Source: a virus (Duplodnaviria > Heunggongvirae > Uroviricota > Caudoviricetes). From it: a stretch of 6,204 bases of DNA. The stretch lies in the IMG/VR virus record IMGVR_UViG_2541047839_000003. One strand, written 5' to 3'. Below are positions 2 through 6,080 of the stretch, one piece after another. Each line of letters starts with the position of its first letter. Positions within the stretch are counted from its first letter, which is position 1. The notes beneath the pieces are model-generated. The model saw nothing but the letters and a program-made list of their open reading frames with translations. It made no database searches and was not told the origin of the DNA. The translations under genes were made by a program, and so were the position numbers.

Positions 2-604
2 GAACGCCGTGATCTGTTGAATAACGTTCTGCGCATTGGTGGTTTTATGACACCAAAAGGGAAGCCTAAAGTGCCGGAAGCACTGTTTAAAAACATCTGC
101 GACTCTCTCGGCCTAAAAACAGGAAAACGTCGCGGCAGAGATGGCGATAAGCGCCCGACATTGCGTTTTGTTGAGCCTGAGTCTGTAGCATTTATGCTTG
201 ATATTCTTGCGCAACGTCAGGAGGACGGTATGACGTTGAAAGCTCGCAAGGCGGAAAAATCAACGACCGAAGTGGATCGCGATTTGTCATTAAATATATA
301 TATGAATGGTGAAACGCGATCCACAAACACGGTGGAACAGGATTCCCCTCGTTCAGCTATATCACAGGCTTTGGCCGTATTGCCGGTGGCTGTTCCTGAG
401 TCCTGGGCGATGAGTGCGCTTTCCAGTGAGGAGTTGGCCACTATGTCATCATGGTCATCAGCCAGCATAGCTATGACGTTTGCATCCCTGTACCTCACAG
501 AGTTCATGGATCACCTTTCCAGCAATGAGCTGCGGCGGTTACGTGAATACATTACGGGGAATAGCTCATGCAGCTACGAAGAGCAGGGCGCTTTCTATGG
601 GTAA
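2..604 (+). CDS. hypothetical protein, 5'-truncated at the window edge (C-terminal ~200 aa visible)
   Basis: The reading frame is open from position 2 with no stop before the listed 17..604 ORF, so the gene starts upstream of the window; stop TAA at 602-604. Same orientation as the downstream genes. No family recognised. Confidence 0.5.
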   Translation, partial: ERRDLLNNVLRIGGFMTPKGKPKVPEALFKNICDSLGLKTGKRRGRDGDKRPTLRFVEPESVAFMLDILAQRQEDGMTLKARKAEKSTTEVDRDLSLNIYMNGETRSTNTVEQDSPRSAISQALAVLPVAVPESWAMSALSSEELATMSSWSSASIAMTFASLYLTEFMDHLSSNELRRLREYITGNSSCSYEEQGAFYG

Positions 605-792: not shown

Positions 793-1119
793 ATGTCTAC
801 TACTGCATTTTTGGACAAACTTGATTACCGTCAGCTGCAGTTCTGCCGGGATGAATGCGAACGACGCATTAGGGCTATCCAGGAGGAAGAAAAAAAGGTC
901 GCCTGGGCTGTAACAGATCGTGGCCTTATCTTTGGCTGGTTCCGTACGGAGGATTATCTGAAAGCAGTGGAATTATTGGCGCGTAAGGCTGCTGAGCGTT
1001 GGGAACGAGCCGACAAGGAAAACCCGGAGACGAAGTATGAACTGAATCTCTACATCGAGGGCAACCGTCTACCATTGTCAGAGTATAACGCTTTGTTTGC
1101 TGATGGTGAGTGGGGTTAA
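793..1119 (+). CDS. hypothetical protein (108 aa), charged and probably cytoplasmic
   Basis: Listed ORF with GGGGAG at 780-785 about 7 nt upstream of ATG 793; stop TAA 1117-1119 lies 2 nt before the next start. No family recognised. Confidence 0.6.
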   Translation: MSTTAFLDKLDYRQLQFCRDECERRIRAIQEEEKKVAWAVTDRGLIFGWFRTEDYLKAVELLARKAAERWERADKENPETKYELNLYIEGNRLPLSEYNALFADGEWG

Positions 1120-1121
1120 AA

Positions 1122-1517
1122 ATGGCTGTTCAATCATACAAATACGAATCCCCTTTGGATAAGGGATACATTCGTATCAAGTTAAGTCGTTCTCAGCATA
1201 AGGCTATTTTTAAGGTAAGGAAAATTCGCATATTGGATGCGTATGCGTATTACTACAACGGTGAAAATGTTGTTGTTGAACACTTTCTTGCACGATGGTT
1301 TGTAGCTCTGATTTTTGTCCCTCTCCTGTTAATTGGTACTTTTGTGGATGGTTTTCCTAGTACATGGCGGGAGATAAAGAAAGGCCTATTCCCGCGTAAG
1401 TACGGCAGATTTTCGCAAGATAGCTGGCGAGTTATACCAGGTAAACATTCTGTGGATGAGCAGCCGATTGTTGATTACTGGTTGAAGCGTATGGCTGATG
1501 CTAAAAAAGTTGATTGA
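1122..1517 (+). CDS. hypothetical small membrane protein (131 aa from ATG 1122)
   Basis: The listed ORF 1110..1517 begins at GTG; ATG at 1122 with a G-rich stretch upstream is the more likely start. One predicted transmembrane helix (WFVALIFVPLLLIGTFV) in a basic protein. Tightly coupled to the upstream 108-aa gene. Confidence 0.55.
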   Translation: MAVQSYKYESPLDKGYIRIKLSRSQHKAIFKVRKIRILDAYAYYYNGENVVVEHFLARWFVALIFVPLLLIGTFVDGFPSTWREIKKGLFPRKYGRFSQDSWRVIPGKHSVDEQPIVDYWLKRMADAKKVD

Positions 1518-1523
1518 ATAGTG

Positions 1524-1565
1524 ATGACTGTTCAAGTTAAACCGTTCTCGGCATATTTTATTTAA
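1524..1565 (+). repeat. degenerate duplicated copy of the 5' end of the 1122..1517 gene
   Basis: ATGACTGTTCAA at 1524-1535 matches ATGGCTGTTCAA at 1122-1133, and 1532-1555 (TCAAGTTAAACCGTTCTCGGCATA) matches 1177-1200 (TCAAGTTAAGTCGTTCTCAGCATA) at 22 of 24 positions. Relative to the full copy, 47 bp between two TCAA microhomologies are missing, which shifts the frame; it reads only 13 codons before a stop. Confidence 0.6.
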
Positions 1566-1606
1566 TGGAATAACATATTATTAATCAAATAGGTTAAGTT
1601 AATATT

Positions 1607-2419
1607 ATGCGTAACAAAAAAACAACAGCTTTATTACTCTCTATCTTGTTATTATCTGGATGCACTTATCAATATGATAATAAGGCATCAACGGACGTTG
1701 AGTATAAATTCGAAAAAGAAAAAAGAGTACCTATCAACTCTGTTGGTGATTTTAGCAGCAAAATACTCACAGGTAAGGAATTTAATAGAATTATTGCATC
1801 AAAGATAGATGATGGTTCATGGCGTGGATATGTCGTTCACTCATTAACATACGCGCCATACAACAACGTTTTAACATCTCAAGGTTTGTCTATCCCTAGA
1901 AGTATCACATACTCAGGAACATATCTTAACCGTGATTTTGTTGAGAATAGCGGTAGTGATAGCGTGATAACATCTCGAGATATGTCTGGATGGTATGGTT
2001 TTCATGTCGATTCCTCTGAAATAACAAAGCATGGAAGCTATGTTGGTGCTAATGCTTTTGGAATATCTGCTGATGTAGAAGTGTTAAATACTTTAGGTGC
2101 CGAAATTATCTTTGGTAGTACACAAATAAATGAAGGGAACCCTGAAACAATATGGGCAGATATTGATATAAAAGGACAAATACCAAAAGATGTTAATGTA
2201 AAAGACCTTAGAATTGAATATTTAGCAAAGATAAATGGGTTAAGCAGTAATCATATTGATATAACATCACCTACTATTTTTAACCCGTCAGATATGAGCC
2301 ATAAAACTCAGGTTTTTATGGGTGAGTTATTAGCCGCGCGCCTAATAAATATTAAAACGGGAGAAATTTATCCAGTACAGCTAGAGTGGGTGTTCCGTTC
2401 GCGTGAGGCTTTCTTATAA
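1607..2419 (+). CDS. lipoprotein of unknown function (270 aa) on an AT-rich insert
   Basis: N-terminus MRNKKTTALLLSILLLSGC has a basic n-region, hydrophobic core and lipobox LSGC with Cys19, followed by Thr at +2. The mature part is rich in S/T/N/G/Y. The gene is visibly much more AT-rich than its flanks. Confidence 0.75.
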   Translation: MRNKKTTALLLSILLLSGCTYQYDNKASTDVEYKFEKEKRVPINSVGDFSSKILTGKEFNRIIASKIDDGSWRGYVVHSLTYAPYNNVLTSQGLSIPRSITYSGTYLNRDFVENSGSDSVITSRDMSGWYGFHVDSSEITKHGSYVGANAFGISADVEVLNTLGAEIIFGSTQINEGNPETIWADIDIKGQIPKDVNVKDLRIEYLAKINGLSSNHIDITSPTIFNPSDMSHKTQVFMGELLAARLINIKTGEIYPVQLEWVFRSREAFL

Positions 2420-2480
2420 CGGAACAATAACATTGTTCATGTTCTGATCGTTTGTTCAAGCAAACTATAAAAACACCTGT

Positions 2481-2550: not shown

Positions 2551-2610
2551 CACCTCGCTGCGGTAAATCCCGCAGTCGGGACTTCGCAATCCTGGCAAAA
2601 CGAAGCGCAC

Positions 2611-2634
2611 AACACGCGCCAGCGTGTTTTTTTG
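2611..2634 (+). terminator. intrinsic terminator / attenuator in the operon leader
   Basis: Stem CACGC (2613-2617) / GCGTG (2622-2626) with loop GCCA, extendable by two A-T pairs, followed by a run of seven T (2627-2633). It lies inside the leader, upstream of the structured RNA element and the first ORF. Confidence 0.5.
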
Positions 2635-2664
2635 TGTGTATAGACCTGCGCATATCCGAATTAT

Positions 2665-2743
2665 GGTGGCTCAGGTGGGGCTGACTTCGGTCGGGCCGGT
2701 TTCTTCGTTTACCGGTATTGCGAACCCCGCCTGGGCTACCACC
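2665..2743 (+). ncRNA. candidate C4/CI-type immunity antisense RNA (structured ~80-nt element); boundaries approximate
   Basis: A long-range stem closes the element: GGTGG 2665-2669 with CCACC 2739-2743, CAGG 2672-2675 with CCTG 2730-2733, TGGGG 2676-2680 with CCCCG 2725-2729. It encloses two hairpins: CTGAC-TTCG-GTCGG (2681-2694) and CCGG-loop-CCGG (2696-2715). The second loop contains CTTCGTTT (2703-2710), complementary to AAACGAAG (2598-2605) in the leader and, with one G-U pair, to AAACGGAG (2784-2791) over the GGAG of the next ORF. Confidence 0.35.
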
Positions 2744-2799
2744 AATAAAGAGATTCGCAACTCTGGTGGTAGCACGACCAATAAAACGGAGTGCATACC

Positions 2800-2964: not shown

Positions 2965-3194
2965 ATCAGGTAAAAATGAACGCTGTTGGCCTGCTGGAAT
3001 CGTTGGATGAACGTCTGGCTCAGGTCTATGCGCTCGTATCATCAGCCCATCGGACAGTCTCCAGCTGTGAGGCGTCGATTTATCTCTCAGAAGCAGGGAA
3101 ACTCCTTCAAATTGCGTGTGAGTTAACACACGAAGCACAGGGGTATTCAGCATCTCTCTCGTCGCAATTGCAGCACAATAAGGAGGCCAAATGA
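2961..3194 (+). CDS. hypothetical small protein (77 aa), middle gene of the operon
   Basis: Listed ORF; GAGGTGG at 2951-2957 precedes ATG 2961. Its stop overlaps the next start (ATGA at 3191-3194). No family recognised; it occupies the position of an antirepressor accessory gene. Confidence 0.55.
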   Translation: MNQVKMNAVGLLESLDERLAQVYALVSSAHRTVSSCEASIYLSEAGKLLQIACELTHEAQGYSASLSSQLQHNKEAK

Positions 3195-3973
3195 GCGCGT
3201 TAGCTGTATTTTCGTTTCAGGAAGAGCATCAGGTTCGTGTAGTGATGATTAACGGTGAGCCGTGGTTTGTGGCTAAGGATGTATGTGATGCTTTAAGACT
3301 CGTTAATTCCCGGAAGGCGCTAATGTCTCTGGATGAGGATGAAAAGGGTGTAACTTTAAGTTACACCCCTGGCGGAGAGCAAAAGCTAAATATTATTTCA
3401 GAGTCAGGTCTATACACCCTGATCCTCCGCTGCCGTGACGCGGTGAAGCAAGGCACAACAGCTTGGCGGTTTCGCAAATGGGTAACGAACGAAGTCTTGC
3501 CCTCTATTCGCAAAAATGGAGAGTACGTTTACATCGAGCCTGAGCCAATGCGAGCAGCGGAGCCGTTGAACTGGAGGCAGAAAGAGTATCTGCGAGGGCT
3601 GATTAACGATATAGCACAAAGTTTTCAGTACCGAAATGCCTGGATTAGCGGTGTATGGTTAGCTTTGCGTCGGGCGTGTCGTAATCCATCCCCGAACCCC
3701 ATAACGGTTGATGATTTGCCAGCAATTACGGCAGAACTGCGCCGGATTTTGACGGCTGCTGAGTCGGCATTGGGGAACATGCGCACGTATGAACGAGAGT
3801 TGTTGCGTGATGTTGTTCGTGGGGGTAGGCGGAGTATGTCGTGTGGTGATTTACCCATCACCGATATTAACTCTGATCTGGAAAAGGCGTTACCCGCGCA
3901 TTTTGAACTGGCAGTTCAAAAACTTGAGCAGTTATCCGCGCAGCTAAAGCCAGCAGAAATCACCAATAAATAG
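3191..3973 (+). CDS. Bro-N domain protein, antirepressor-like (260 aa)
   Basis: N-terminal ~110 aa (FSFQEEHQVRVVMINGEPWFVAKDVCDALRL ... ESGLYTLILRCRDAVKQGTTAWRFRKWVTNEVLPSIRKNGEY) matches the Bro-N signature seen in phage Ant/KilA-type proteins. AGGAGG at 3181-3186 precedes ATG 3191; stop TAG 3971-3973. Confidence 0.85.
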   Translation: MSALAVFSFQEEHQVRVVMINGEPWFVAKDVCDALRLVNSRKALMSLDEDEKGVTLSYTPGGEQKLNIISESGLYTLILRCRDAVKQGTTAWRFRKWVTNEVLPSIRKNGEYVYIEPEPMRAAEPLNWRQKEYLRGLINDIAQSFQYRNAWISGVWLALRRACRNPSPNPITVDDLPAITAELRRILTAAESALGNMRTYERELLRDVVRGGRRSMSCGDLPITDINSDLEKALPAHFELAVQKLEQLSAQLKPAEITNK

Positions 3974-4144: not shown

Positions 4145-6046
4145 TTAACCGAAATATGTCAGCCATGCTAACTGCATTGCTGACATGGGGCTGTTTGCAC
4201 TGCCGGACCACGCATAATTCTGGCCATTATAATGAAACTCAACAACGTATGAGCCATCACCAATATTTCTCACCGGCTTAAATACCGGCTTAGATACAGG
4301 CGAAGAAGGTGCAGGCGGTTGCTGTTCTTCTACGCTATCTTCCTCTTCCTCTTCCTCTTCCTCTATCTCAATTTCGTCGTCATCCAGATCGTCATCCTCT
4401 GATAATTCATCCGCCAGTTCAGGTATTGCTTCCAGTTCTTCTTCGTCAGGCATAACGATTTCTGGAGTATCTATTTTCAGTTGCCATTGTCCGTTTTCGC
4501 CAACAAATTGCCCCAGAGCATCAGCAGCAAATTCCAGGTATCGACTAATCATTGTTGGGCTAAATTTGAACGCTCTTAGAGTGCTGTTCGTGATTTTTAT
4601 AGAGGGGTCCTGCTCTACCAGCTGCTTAACTGTGTTATGCAGACGAACCCCGGCATCTCCTCTGGCGAATCCAGGCATTTCGTCATCAAGCTGCTGCAAT
4701 GCTTCCAGCCTGGTATTTTCGTTTCCAGTATTTGGCCTCCATGTCTTTGAGAAGTTGGCCAGCTTGAATTGCTTATAGTGTAATTGAGTGTTTTCATCGT
4801 CATGGCCTAAAATTTCCATAAAGAAAACATCTTCATCTACGTTTTTCCAACGAGGATCTACGCGGAAAAACATTTCATACGCAATACGGGCATAAATAGC
4901 ACGACTATCTTTATAAACACGGCGGTCATCTTTGAAAAATGATTTAACCCACGGGTTAAAAGCCTTTGCTAATATGGCATTAATACGTCCGTTTTCAGAG
5001 CGTGTGTCGTTATCTCCATAACCTTTAACGACATCATCAAAATCAGATGCTGCTGGGCATGAGCGAAGTACATTTATTAAATAAACAAATGTTTTTGCTT
5101 CGCATAATGTATATATTTTTCTGGTTATATTATCAGAAGTTCTTTTTTTAGCTTGGCCTAAAAAATCAACGGTATACTTACCAGAAACAGTAAATGTACC
5201 TTGATACATAATCTCAATCATTCGTCTTCCTGACAATGCAGCAAGTGCAAATGCCAAAGGAGCCATACCTGAACGAGTGTTTAGATTATTTAATGTAGCA
5301 GGGCTATTTATAATATCGTAAATAGCTTGCATATATTTAGGGTAATCAATGACCACCACGTTACGTTTCTTATTGTGCAGAACGTCCGCCCATCGTTGCT
5401 GGATAGATGCACGTTCGGCAGGGCTTAGTTGAAGATGATAGAGAATCTCATGGTTAACTTTTAGCTGATTCAACTCCTCAAGTAAGGCAGATCCTTGCTG
5501 TAGTAATTTATATAAATAATCGCGCTTATCTTTCCAGTTATCGCTAGTTAAATCAGAAATGGCGAATTGCCACTCTTTATATTTATTTGATAATTTCAAT
5601 AACTTATTATGACTTTTGTTATCGCCAATTCTGATATTAGATAAATCTTCTGATAGAGGGAGAATTAATTTTAATTTTGCCTGTAAAGCTGACATTCTCT
5701 GGCGAATATCGGCAGCAGGTAGAGAAAGCCATGACAATAGCTCCTCATTATATAAAGGATACTTTTCAGATAGGCGATGTATATTTTTTTCAAAGCTATG
5801 ATGAAGTTTATCATCAAACCGTTTTCTGGCCCTGCTCATATAGGCATTGAATGTGTTGGCTGTAATTCTTTTTTCTAATCCTTTCCCCCTAAACTTTCGC
5901 TTGTCATTAAATAATGCATTTTTAAATTTTAATGCAACAGCCTTTATTTTTTTTGTTTTCTCCCCTTGAGGACGGTCAGAGTTATCTATTGACTCAACAT
6001 CGCTAACAAGTGAGTTTATTAATTCACCGATTTTTACTTTGCTCAT
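4145..6046 (-). CDS. telN: protelomerase (telomere resolvase), TelN/TelK family, complete, 633 aa
   Basis: The translation is recognisably close along its length to N15 TelN as I recall it (MSKVKIGELIN..., KRITANTFNAYMSRARKRFDDKLHHSF, TRSGMAPLAFALAA.SGRRMIEIM, RSENGRINAILAKAFNPWVKSF, ILGHDDENTQLHYKQFKLANFS). His423-Tyr424 (Tyr codon at 4775-4777) sits where I recall the TelN catalytic tyrosine. The start is preceded by AGGAGAGG on the minus strand; stop TAA at 4145-4147. Confidence 0.93.
   Translation of the reverse strand: MSKVKIGELINSLVSDVESIDNSDRPQGEKTKKIKAVALKFKNALFNDKRKFRGKGLEKRITANTFNAYMSRARKRFDDKLHHSFEKNIHRLSEKYPLYNEELLSWLSLPAADIRQRMSALQAKLKLILPLSEDLSNIRIGDNKSHNKLLKLSNKYKEWQFAISDLTSDNWKDKRDYLYKLLQQGSALLEELNQLKVNHEILYHLQLSPAERASIQQRWADVLHNKKRNVVVIDYPKYMQAIYDIINSPATLNNLNTRSGMAPLAFALAALSGRRMIEIMYQGTFTVSGKYTVDFLGQAKKRTSDNITRKIYTLCEAKTFVYLINVLRSCPAASDFDDVVKGYGDNDTRSENGRINAILAKAFNPWVKSFFKDDRRVYKDSRAIYARIAYEMFFRVDPRWKNVDEDVFFMEILGHDDENTQLHYKQFKLANFSKTWRPNTGNENTRLEALQQLDDEMPGFARGDAGVRLHNTVKQLVEQDPSIKITNSTLRAFKFSPTMISRYLEFAADALGQFVGENGQWQLKIDTPEIVMPDEEELEAIPELADELSEDDDLDDDEIEIEEEEEEEEDSVEEQQPPAPSSPVSKPVFKPVRNIGDGSYVVEFHYNGQNYAWSGSANSPMSAMQLAWLTYFG
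4338..4363 (-). repeat. (CTTCCT)4 hexamer repeat encoding an eight-Glu run in the telN linker
   Basis: TCTTCCTCTTCCTCTTCCTCTTCCTC on the plus strand corresponds to (GAG GAA)4 on the coding strand, inside the acidic segment DDDEIEIEEEEEEEEDSVEE. Confidence 0.8.
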
Positions 6047-6080
6047 CTTTCCTCTCCTGATTATCCGCTCGGATTATCGT

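Follow-up and report, generated by a model that had tools for sequence, protein, structure and literature searches.

What role does a single AT-rich gene play when it is carried as cargo by a linear phage-plasmid? The question is raised by IMG/VR virus record IMGVR_UViG_2541047839_000003, analysed here as one stretch of 6,204 nucleotides (the window), which is assigned by its sequence to an N15-type (Ravinvirus-like) linear phage-plasmid, of which it is a portion. Between the small genes that follow repA and the RNA locus that controls the antirepressor lies an insert with one gene, encoding a predicted lipoprotein (Table 1). An even chance is given here to the reading that this lipoprotein excludes incoming siphophages at the cell envelope. 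An envelope protein encoded by a prophage- or plasmid-borne moron is of a known kind; what is new is the uncharacterised family with its orphan fold.

The first step is to establish what the gene encodes. A sequence-only reading of the window had described a single gene for a 270-amino acid (aa) protein with the lipobox LSGC, Cys19 and Thr at position +2, and these features are borne out. The N-terminus, MRNKKTTALLLSILLLSGC followed by T, contains three positive charges and a 9-residue hydrophobic core ahead of the lipobox. Because position +2 is occupied by Thr20 and not by the Asp retention signal, sorting to the outer membrane is predicted; the product would be an outer-membrane lipoprotein, with both its lipidation and its location predicted from sequence. 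The same signal recurs across the family. The canonical lipobox [LVI][ASTVI][GAS]C is present in 16 of the 18 full-length members, P0018 having the variant LNGC, and where a lipobox Cys is present (17 members), position +2 is filled by T, S, V, A, G or I and in no case by Asp (0/17). Beyond Cys19 the mature protein contains no Cys, and it has no transmembrane segment (maximum KD-19 of 1.18). The richness of the mature domain in S, T, N, G and Y, also pointed out in the sequence-only reading, is real but modest, these residues making up 35.7% of the mature protein vs 19–31% in the other proteins of the window.

The gene is real and under purifying selection. Its ratio of non-synonymous to synonymous substitution rates (dN/dS) against the Escherichia fergusonii copy is 0.17, with 17 synonymous and 11 non-synonymous differences. 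A spurious or decaying open reading frame (ORF) in AT-rich junk DNA might have been suspected, since AT-rich composition relaxes the stop-codon constraint on long ORFs in some frames and the protein lacks a family annotation. That explanation is effectively refuted by this dN/dS value, by intact homologs at 53–63% identity that retain the lipobox and the conserved motifs on many elements, and by a confident structure prediction. AlphaFold supplied with six close sequences gave an unusable model, with a predicted local distance difference test score (pLDDT) of 50; once distant relatives were added the model became confident (pLDDT 87.5, predicted template modelling score 0.78) and mostly beta. 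Around the putative tether behind the anchor, pLDDT is 57–67 over residues 11–30, and residues 21–40 are the least conserved block of the alignment (0.22).

The family to which the protein belongs is very small and uncharacterised. A search of 5.8 billion proteins recovered five clusters at 99–53% identity, and 20 hits emerged when 1.84 billion cluster representatives were searched exhaustively with a profile. A word-indexed search with the wide alignment added almost no further members, no copy turned up in species-representative genomes scanned with the close-subfamily alignment, and literature searches found no paper characterising the family. All members come from Gammaproteobacteria (Escherichia, Salmonella, Klebsiella, Enterobacter, Serratia, Providencia, Tatumella and Xanthomonas), and all are annotated as hypothetical protein or lipoprotein. 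Residues Y145, N149, A150 and G152 are invariant across the family, and the 'AARL-N' motif at 243–248 is also conserved. The alignment contains no conserved set of catalytic-type residues, and invariants of this kind argue for a binder rather than an enzyme. In ten distant members there are two Cys residues approximately 70 residues apart, which align to I186 and V257 of the window protein, both in predicted strands; this pair suggests a disulfide and hence an oxidising, periplasmic compartment for those members.

The sequence-only reading had not recognised the family and had proposed structure prediction followed by a structure-based search. Its failure to place the protein was well founded. 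Pfam offers no family for the window protein at E values up to 0.1, and the 19 aligned members are likewise without assignment. NCBIfam and PADLOC gave nothing beyond signal-peptide noise for the window protein; one of the 19 members had a marginal, isolated PADLOC match to NsnC (E=0.0026). Among the PDB sequences nothing relevant was found with either the single sequence or the profile of alignment A2, and the predicted structure had no fold match in the libraries searched, among which the modelled fold appears to be an orphan. The only catalogued family touched is PHROG 13753, a 263-position profile that the window protein matches with E=1.3e-3 over residues 135–259 only. Its relatives score from 7e-4 to 5e-9, the distant ones from 1.5e-7 to 5e-9 over most of their length. 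The window protein may thus belong to PHROG 13753 at the superfamily level at best, its subfamily probably forming a divergent edge. PHROG 13753 is a phage protein family with no assigned function and so provides a label for the protein, not a mechanism.

The borders of the insert bear on how the gene came to lie at this position. The two nearest phages, YDC107_1 and PhiR46_1, are approximately 95% identical to the window on both sides; in blastn alignments their homology ends at 1523–1532 and returns at 2434–2442, while that of N15, NAR688 and Kpn74 also returns at 2425–2437. The insert, which had been placed at 1556–2460 from the sequence alone, is therefore real and is located by blastn at about 1533–2433, close to the first estimate. 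Among 5,426 complete genomes it is carried by 3 of approximately 17 closely related E. coli backbones. It is lacking in N15, YDC107_1 and PhiR46_1, and in most other E. coli backbones a 95-aa ORF probably replaces it. The insert has a guanine-cytosine (GC) content of 0.343 vs 0.445 in the rest of the window, and the lipoprotein gene has a GC content at third codon positions of 0.258. Windows of 901 nt that are equally AT-rich make up 2.9% of the total and nearly all overlap the insert. The earlier statement that nothing around the segment is as AT-rich goes slightly too far: the AT-richness stands, but the 5' two-thirds of telN (about 4800–6050), a core gene, has a similar GC content of 0.33–0.39, and a few windows there tie with the insert. 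The 3' third of telN has a GC content of 0.43–0.46.

With presence/absence polymorphism at a fixed junction and a dip in GC content, the cassette is a moron, and the comparison of related phage-plasmids at this junction agrees with the proposal of a separately acquired segment. A recent acquisition is not required. An Enterobacter-type N15-like element, with backbone proteins 51–77% identical to those of the window, has a homolog of 59% identity in this slot. The presence of this homolog in the same slot of a diverged backbone suggests that the gene may have occupied the slot for a long time, and that N15 and most E. coli relatives lost or replaced it. A search for repeats or att-like sites flanking the insert yielded only short matches, no better than chance. 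In two relatives (L001 at about 3030–3050 and L034 at about 6995–7015), a palindromic CTGATCAG-GTT-CTGATCAG motif lies just ahead of the common backbone, whereas the window at 2440–2449 retains only the right half of it (GTTCTGATCG), which places the cargo breakpoint inside the motif. The palindrome may be a recombination hotspot or a regulatory hairpin.

The position of the insert is shared with cargo of known type. In the Klebsiella phage NAR688 the gene order is RepA, an 86-aa ORF, a gp36-like ORF and two further ORFs, of 181 aa (+ strand) and 377 aa (- strand); homology then restarts exactly at window position 2434, which corresponds to position 7001 of the NAR688 locus. In Kpn74, fragments of a colicin-like pore-former are found in the same place. 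The TelA/ImmA cassettes of Klebsiella telomere phages have been placed 'between the genes encoding RepA and protelomerase', and both cassette proteins were detected in lysogen proteomes (PMC12042878). The slot of the lipoprotein gene is this same N15-type junction, and thus a known cargo hotspot that is expressed in lysogens. The cassettes, like the proposed role of the lipoprotein, represent lysogen-expressed competition cargo, but TelA/ImmA consists of two genes, a toxin and an inner-membrane immunity protein (PMC12042878), whereas the window has a single lipoprotein gene and no toxin. The slot would then be a general hotspot of telomere phages for envelope-acting competition genes with varying cargo: the lipoprotein here, a secreted 95-aa protein in most E. 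coli relatives and bacteriocins in the Klebsiella phages.

The 95-aa ORF (L002 3044–3331; L036 1346–1633) fills the slot in PhiR46_1 and pEC21Z151-46K, and the same ORF is probably present in most backbones that lack the insert. In its product a Sec signal peptide is followed by a mature part containing four Cys, and the only matches are to PHROGs whose function is unknown. A depositor has labelled it 'Spackle exclusion protein' (PV340565), a label that comparison with sequences of solved structure did not confirm.

The bacteriocin cargo of this slot raises the alternative that the lipoprotein is an orphan protection factor against toxins acting in the periplasm, such as colicin M or pesticin-like bacteriocins, telocins or effectors of type VI secretion systems, by binding the toxin or masking its translocator. 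Besides the immunity cassettes of the Klebsiella telomere phages, it draws on the predicted periplasmic location and on the small ColE1-type plasmids among the habitats of the family; such plasmids are classic carriers of bacteriocin and immunity genes, and the lipoprotein is the only cargo of those found here. Inactivation of a receptor by Cor-type proteins also protects against colicin M (PMC3594210). A toxin shield is nevertheless unlikely: no toxin gene stands alongside a homolog in any of approximately 17 contexts, ten of these contexts lie in phage tail modules, where there is no obvious reason for an immunity gene, and telocin immunity proteins of the ImmA type are polytopic inner-membrane proteins, unlike a lipoprotein (PMC12042878).

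The genomic positions of the relatives are the principal evidence on function. In ten siphovirus prophage contexts the homolog lies within the tail module. In five of them (P0017, P0012, P0016, P0020 and P0015) it is immediately upstream of the tape-measure gene, and the L060 member directly precedes a 977-aa ORF, probably a tape measure. P0008 is immediately downstream of the tape-measure gene, P0011 and P0005/L025 are one gene further on, and the homolog of L032/L033 sits next to an Ail/Lom moron in the interval from tail L to tail I. Elsewhere, the Xanthomonas homolog is located 18 nt downstream of a Peptidase_S24 CI-type repressor gene in the same orientation. The gene is also the sole non-backbone gene of MOBP plasmids of 3.7–4.4 kb and of one 2.7-kb ColRNAI plasmid, and one further homolog resides on a relaxase/resolvase element. 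GC content and terminators were surveyed at ten loci, namely nine prophage tail modules and one relaxase-bearing plasmid (L048). The homolog is 2–19 points lower in GC than its flanks at all ten, and an intrinsic terminator lies directly 3' of it in at least eight by eye, confirmed with a tool in L039, L051 and L049. A terminator directly after the homolog inside a tail operon argues for an autonomous unit. Promoter-like sites upstream of the relatives do not exceed the shuffled expectation.

Three further observations concern these habitats. The L032 region (4685–8810) is a moron cluster in a lambdoid tail module, comprising an Ail/Lom outer-membrane protein, a P22_AR_N antirepressor, a Bro-N protein and the lipoprotein homolog. 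In L057 (3923–8260) a weak family member (E 2e-6) is found with an IrrE/M78 peptidase and proteins with LysM, SH3 and thrombospondin repeats, an envelope-themed context. On the MOBP mini-plasmids the homolog is always preceded by a 143-aa gene, which was considered as a functional partner and rejected, as its product is a winged-helix Rep-like protein with weak MarR, RepL and Rep3 matches.

Location in late tail operons in the same orientation, where late lytic transcription is expected, could instead indicate a part in the element's own life cycle, for example as an accessory of lysis or egress, as a factor that keeps progeny from adsorbing to debris and acts only during lytic growth, or as an entry exclusion protein for plasmid mobilisation. 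T5 Llp is a lytic-conversion protein of comparable sort, and homologs on small plasmids lie beside mob genes, including one for an MbeD/MobD exclusion protein. However, the gene is dispensable, as approximately 14 of 17 near-identical E. coli backbones lack it; a terminator directly behind its relatives marks an autonomous unit; and it occurs on a non-conjugative 2.7-kb plasmid with no annotated mob genes, while N15-type elements do not conjugate. A life-cycle role is accordingly judged highly improbable. A spanin was considered separately and rejected, given the length of 270 aa, the lack of a C-terminal transmembrane segment and of an i-spanin partner, and a context outside any lysis module.

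The Ail/Lom neighbour in L032 bears on a different alternative, in which the lipoprotein serves lysogenic conversion, either by acting on an animal host or by making the envelope more robust (serum or complement resistance, adhesion, stress tolerance), in the manner of TraT, Bor/Iss and Lom. TraT, which confers surface exclusion and serum resistance, is of approximately the same size (about 25 kDa), and it occupies the compartment predicted for the window protein. TraT of F-like plasmids and lambda Bor/Iss are likewise outer-membrane lipoproteins of mobile elements that act alone, though their genomic habitats differ. Carriers of the family come from human, pig, poultry and wild-bird isolates. 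On the other side, none of the 19 family members matches the TraT (PF05818) or Bor (PF06291) model, and no TraT, Bor or Ail/Lom match was obtained in Pfam at E values up to 0.1. Members are also found in a prophage of the plant pathogen Xanthomonas hortorum and in environmental metagenomes, and the clustering around tape-measure genes is left unexplained. A host factor of this kind is very unlikely.

Exclusion of incoming phages is favoured because the habitats of the family (the gp15 position, the neighbourhood of CI, the telocin slot and sole cargo of a mini-plasmid) are the habitats of lysogen-protecting genes, and because precedents exist for exclusion by lipoproteins. The sequence-only reading had named Llp and Cor as precedents. 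The Llp protein, the Cor family (T1, phi80, N15 and HK022) and Rtp45 are also single-gene phage lipoproteins with a lipobox, which act alone at the inner leaflet of the outer membrane. These proteins bind the periplasmic face of FhuA or LptD (PMC9586334, PMC12685063). Kinship with Llp or Cor is undetectable: the window protein gave no Pfam or PHROG match to them and none in the profile search of PDB sequences. Llp has approximately 61 mature residues and one disulfide, whereas the window protein has 252 mature residues and no Cys beyond the anchor. The gene neighbourhoods also differ, as Llp, Cor and Rtp45 genes adjoin the gene for the receptor-binding protein and the prophage relatives of the window gene adjoin that for the tape measure.

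Two other precedents fit the habitats more closely. HK97 gp15, the archetypal moron, is a superinfection-exclusion protein whose gene separates the tail assembly chaperone gene from the tape-measure gene; made by the prophage, it prevents DNA from entering, an effect that depends on the phage tail region (PMC3594210). This position is exactly matched by five family members, and a sixth precedes a probable tape-measure gene, but it is not matched by the window gene. Gp15 (YebO-like) is moreover a small inner-membrane protein, in contrast to a 250–300-aa lipoprotein with no transmembrane segment, and the two have no sequence kinship. Ltp of Streptococcus thermophilus phage TP-J34 is a superinfection-exclusion lipoprotein of a prophage and is encoded in the lysogeny module beside the repressor, like the Xanthomonas homolog. 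It reportedly targets the tape measure protein. Ltp is anchored at the outer face of the cytoplasmic membrane of a Gram-positive host and has 142 aa, and no similarity between it and the window protein was detected. By analogy, the gene may work like Llp/Cor/Rtp45, HK97 gp15 or Ltp, yet it differs from them in size, architecture and sequence.

The proposed exclusion would proceed as follows. The lipoprotein gene, a single-gene moron in the cargo slot between the repA operon and the antirepressor/telN region, would be transcribed while the element persists as a plasmid prophage, probably because transcription of the repA operon reads through into it. The precursor would be exported by Sec, and a tether of about 20 residues would hold in the periplasm a domain of 230 residues that is mostly beta, non-enzymatic and of orphan fold. 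There the protein would protect the carrier cell at the envelope by blocking incoming (sipho)phages, either by attaching to the periplasmic face of an outer-membrane receptor or by disturbing the delivery of DNA across the periplasm by the tail tip and tape measure. The same action could exclude bacteriocins that share the import route. The clustering of relatives around tape-measure genes hints at blocked DNA passage rather than receptor masking. A more specific version is possible but doubtful: that these are fold-orphan exclusion lipoproteins of Gram-negative hosts which strike the tail tip or tape measure from the periplasm, block DNA delivery rather than adsorption, and are portable to plasmids of 2.7–4.4 kb and to the telocin slot. 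The family would then be the Gram-negative functional counterpart of Ltp and HK97 gp15.

Several observations weigh against exclusion. The lipoprotein has no homology to any known exclusion protein, PADLOC-DB v2 contains no match to the window protein, and tblastn with the window protein, P0017 and P0011 found none in the collection of cultured phages searched. Known superinfection-exclusion lipoproteins of Gram-negative hosts are much smaller, as illustrated by Llp. The gene in the window has no linkage to tail genes, the tail-module sites of its relatives may be merely favoured sites of moron insertion, and the sampled loci are phylogenetically non-independent. The argument from neighbouring cargo, whether telocins or the unconfirmed 'Spackle' label, is guilt by association. 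A promoter scan found no consensus sigma-70 promoter on the + strand upstream of the lipoprotein gene, and a terminator scan found no convincing terminator within the insert, the first strong one on the + strand being at 2611–2628, inside isrK; because the gene has neither a detected promoter nor a detected terminator of its own, its expression in lysogens is argued from the slot alone. The exclusion function, its target and expression in the lysogen are all inferred. What probability remains beyond the readings discussed here belongs to other functions.

If the function is confirmed, the gene would represent a structurally new, one-gene, envelope-level determinant against phages and possibly bacteriocins, which moves among the prophages, phage-plasmids and mini-plasmids of Enterobacterales. 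It would bear on host range in phage therapy and on the selection of 'cryptic' small plasmids. Through its repeated adjacency to tape-measure genes, the family could also make a poorly understood step, the passage of siphophage DNA across the Gram-negative periplasm, accessible to genetics. The case is unusually clean and directly testable.

Table 1. Features of the 6,204-nt window
Feature	Position	Strand	Remarks
RepA replication protein, C-terminus	17–604		
gp36-like ORF	793–1119		
gp35-like ORF	1110–1517	+	135 aa; GC 0.41; PHROG 15458; hydrophobic segment FLARWFVALIFVPLLLIGTFV
Upstream spacer	1518–1606	+	AT-rich (GC 0.25); from gp35-like stop codon to lipoprotein start codon
Insert (cargo cassette)	1533–2433		Between post-repA small genes and isrK/C4 RNA antirepressor-control locus; absent from closest relatives
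Lipoprotein gene	1607–2419	+	ATG start; 270-aa precursor, 252-aa mature, ~28 kDa, pI 5.3
Signal peptide and lipobox	1607–1663	+	L16-S17-G18-C19 at nt 1652–1663; Cys19 predicted lipid-attachment residue
Putative tether	1664–1720	+	Residues about 20–38; low conservation, low model confidence
Family signature	2039–2077	+	Y145-x-G-x-N149-A-F-G152 ... V157; alignment A2; contains the only invariant residues across the wide family
Second conserved motif	2333–2371	+	A243-A-R-L-x-N248 ... Y255 ('LLAARLIN-KTG-xY')
Weak AT-rich hairpin	2421–2438	+	GAACAAT-AAC-ATTGTTC; right insert edge; no T-run
isrK RNA	2557–2632	+	Antirepressor-control locus; Rfam, 52.8 bits
C4 antisense RNA	2659–2746	+	Antirepressor-control locus; Rfam, 82.3 bits
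Bro-N antirepressor	3191–3973		Preceded by 77-aa ORF
telN, protelomerase	4145–6046	-	

The remaining observations concern the flanks of the insert. The gp35-like ORF is found in the close E. coli relatives and is lacking from N15, NAR688 and the Enterobacter-type elements. It is a second variable gene of the cargo slot, and its product is probably membrane-associated. To the right of the insert, the isrK/C4 region corresponds to the CA-RNA/antirepressor control locus of N15. Window positions 2575–2729 exhibit approximately 78% identity to unannotated spots on 35 E. coli chromosomes, which are presumably unannotated C4/isrK-type RNAs of other prophages. Inverted duplicates of telN and the slot occur inside single records, namely L027 (a 56-kb IMG/VR contig), L001 at 7022–8297 and plasmid records of 62–92 kb, and these likely result from assembly reading through the covalently closed hairpin telomere of the linear plasmid.

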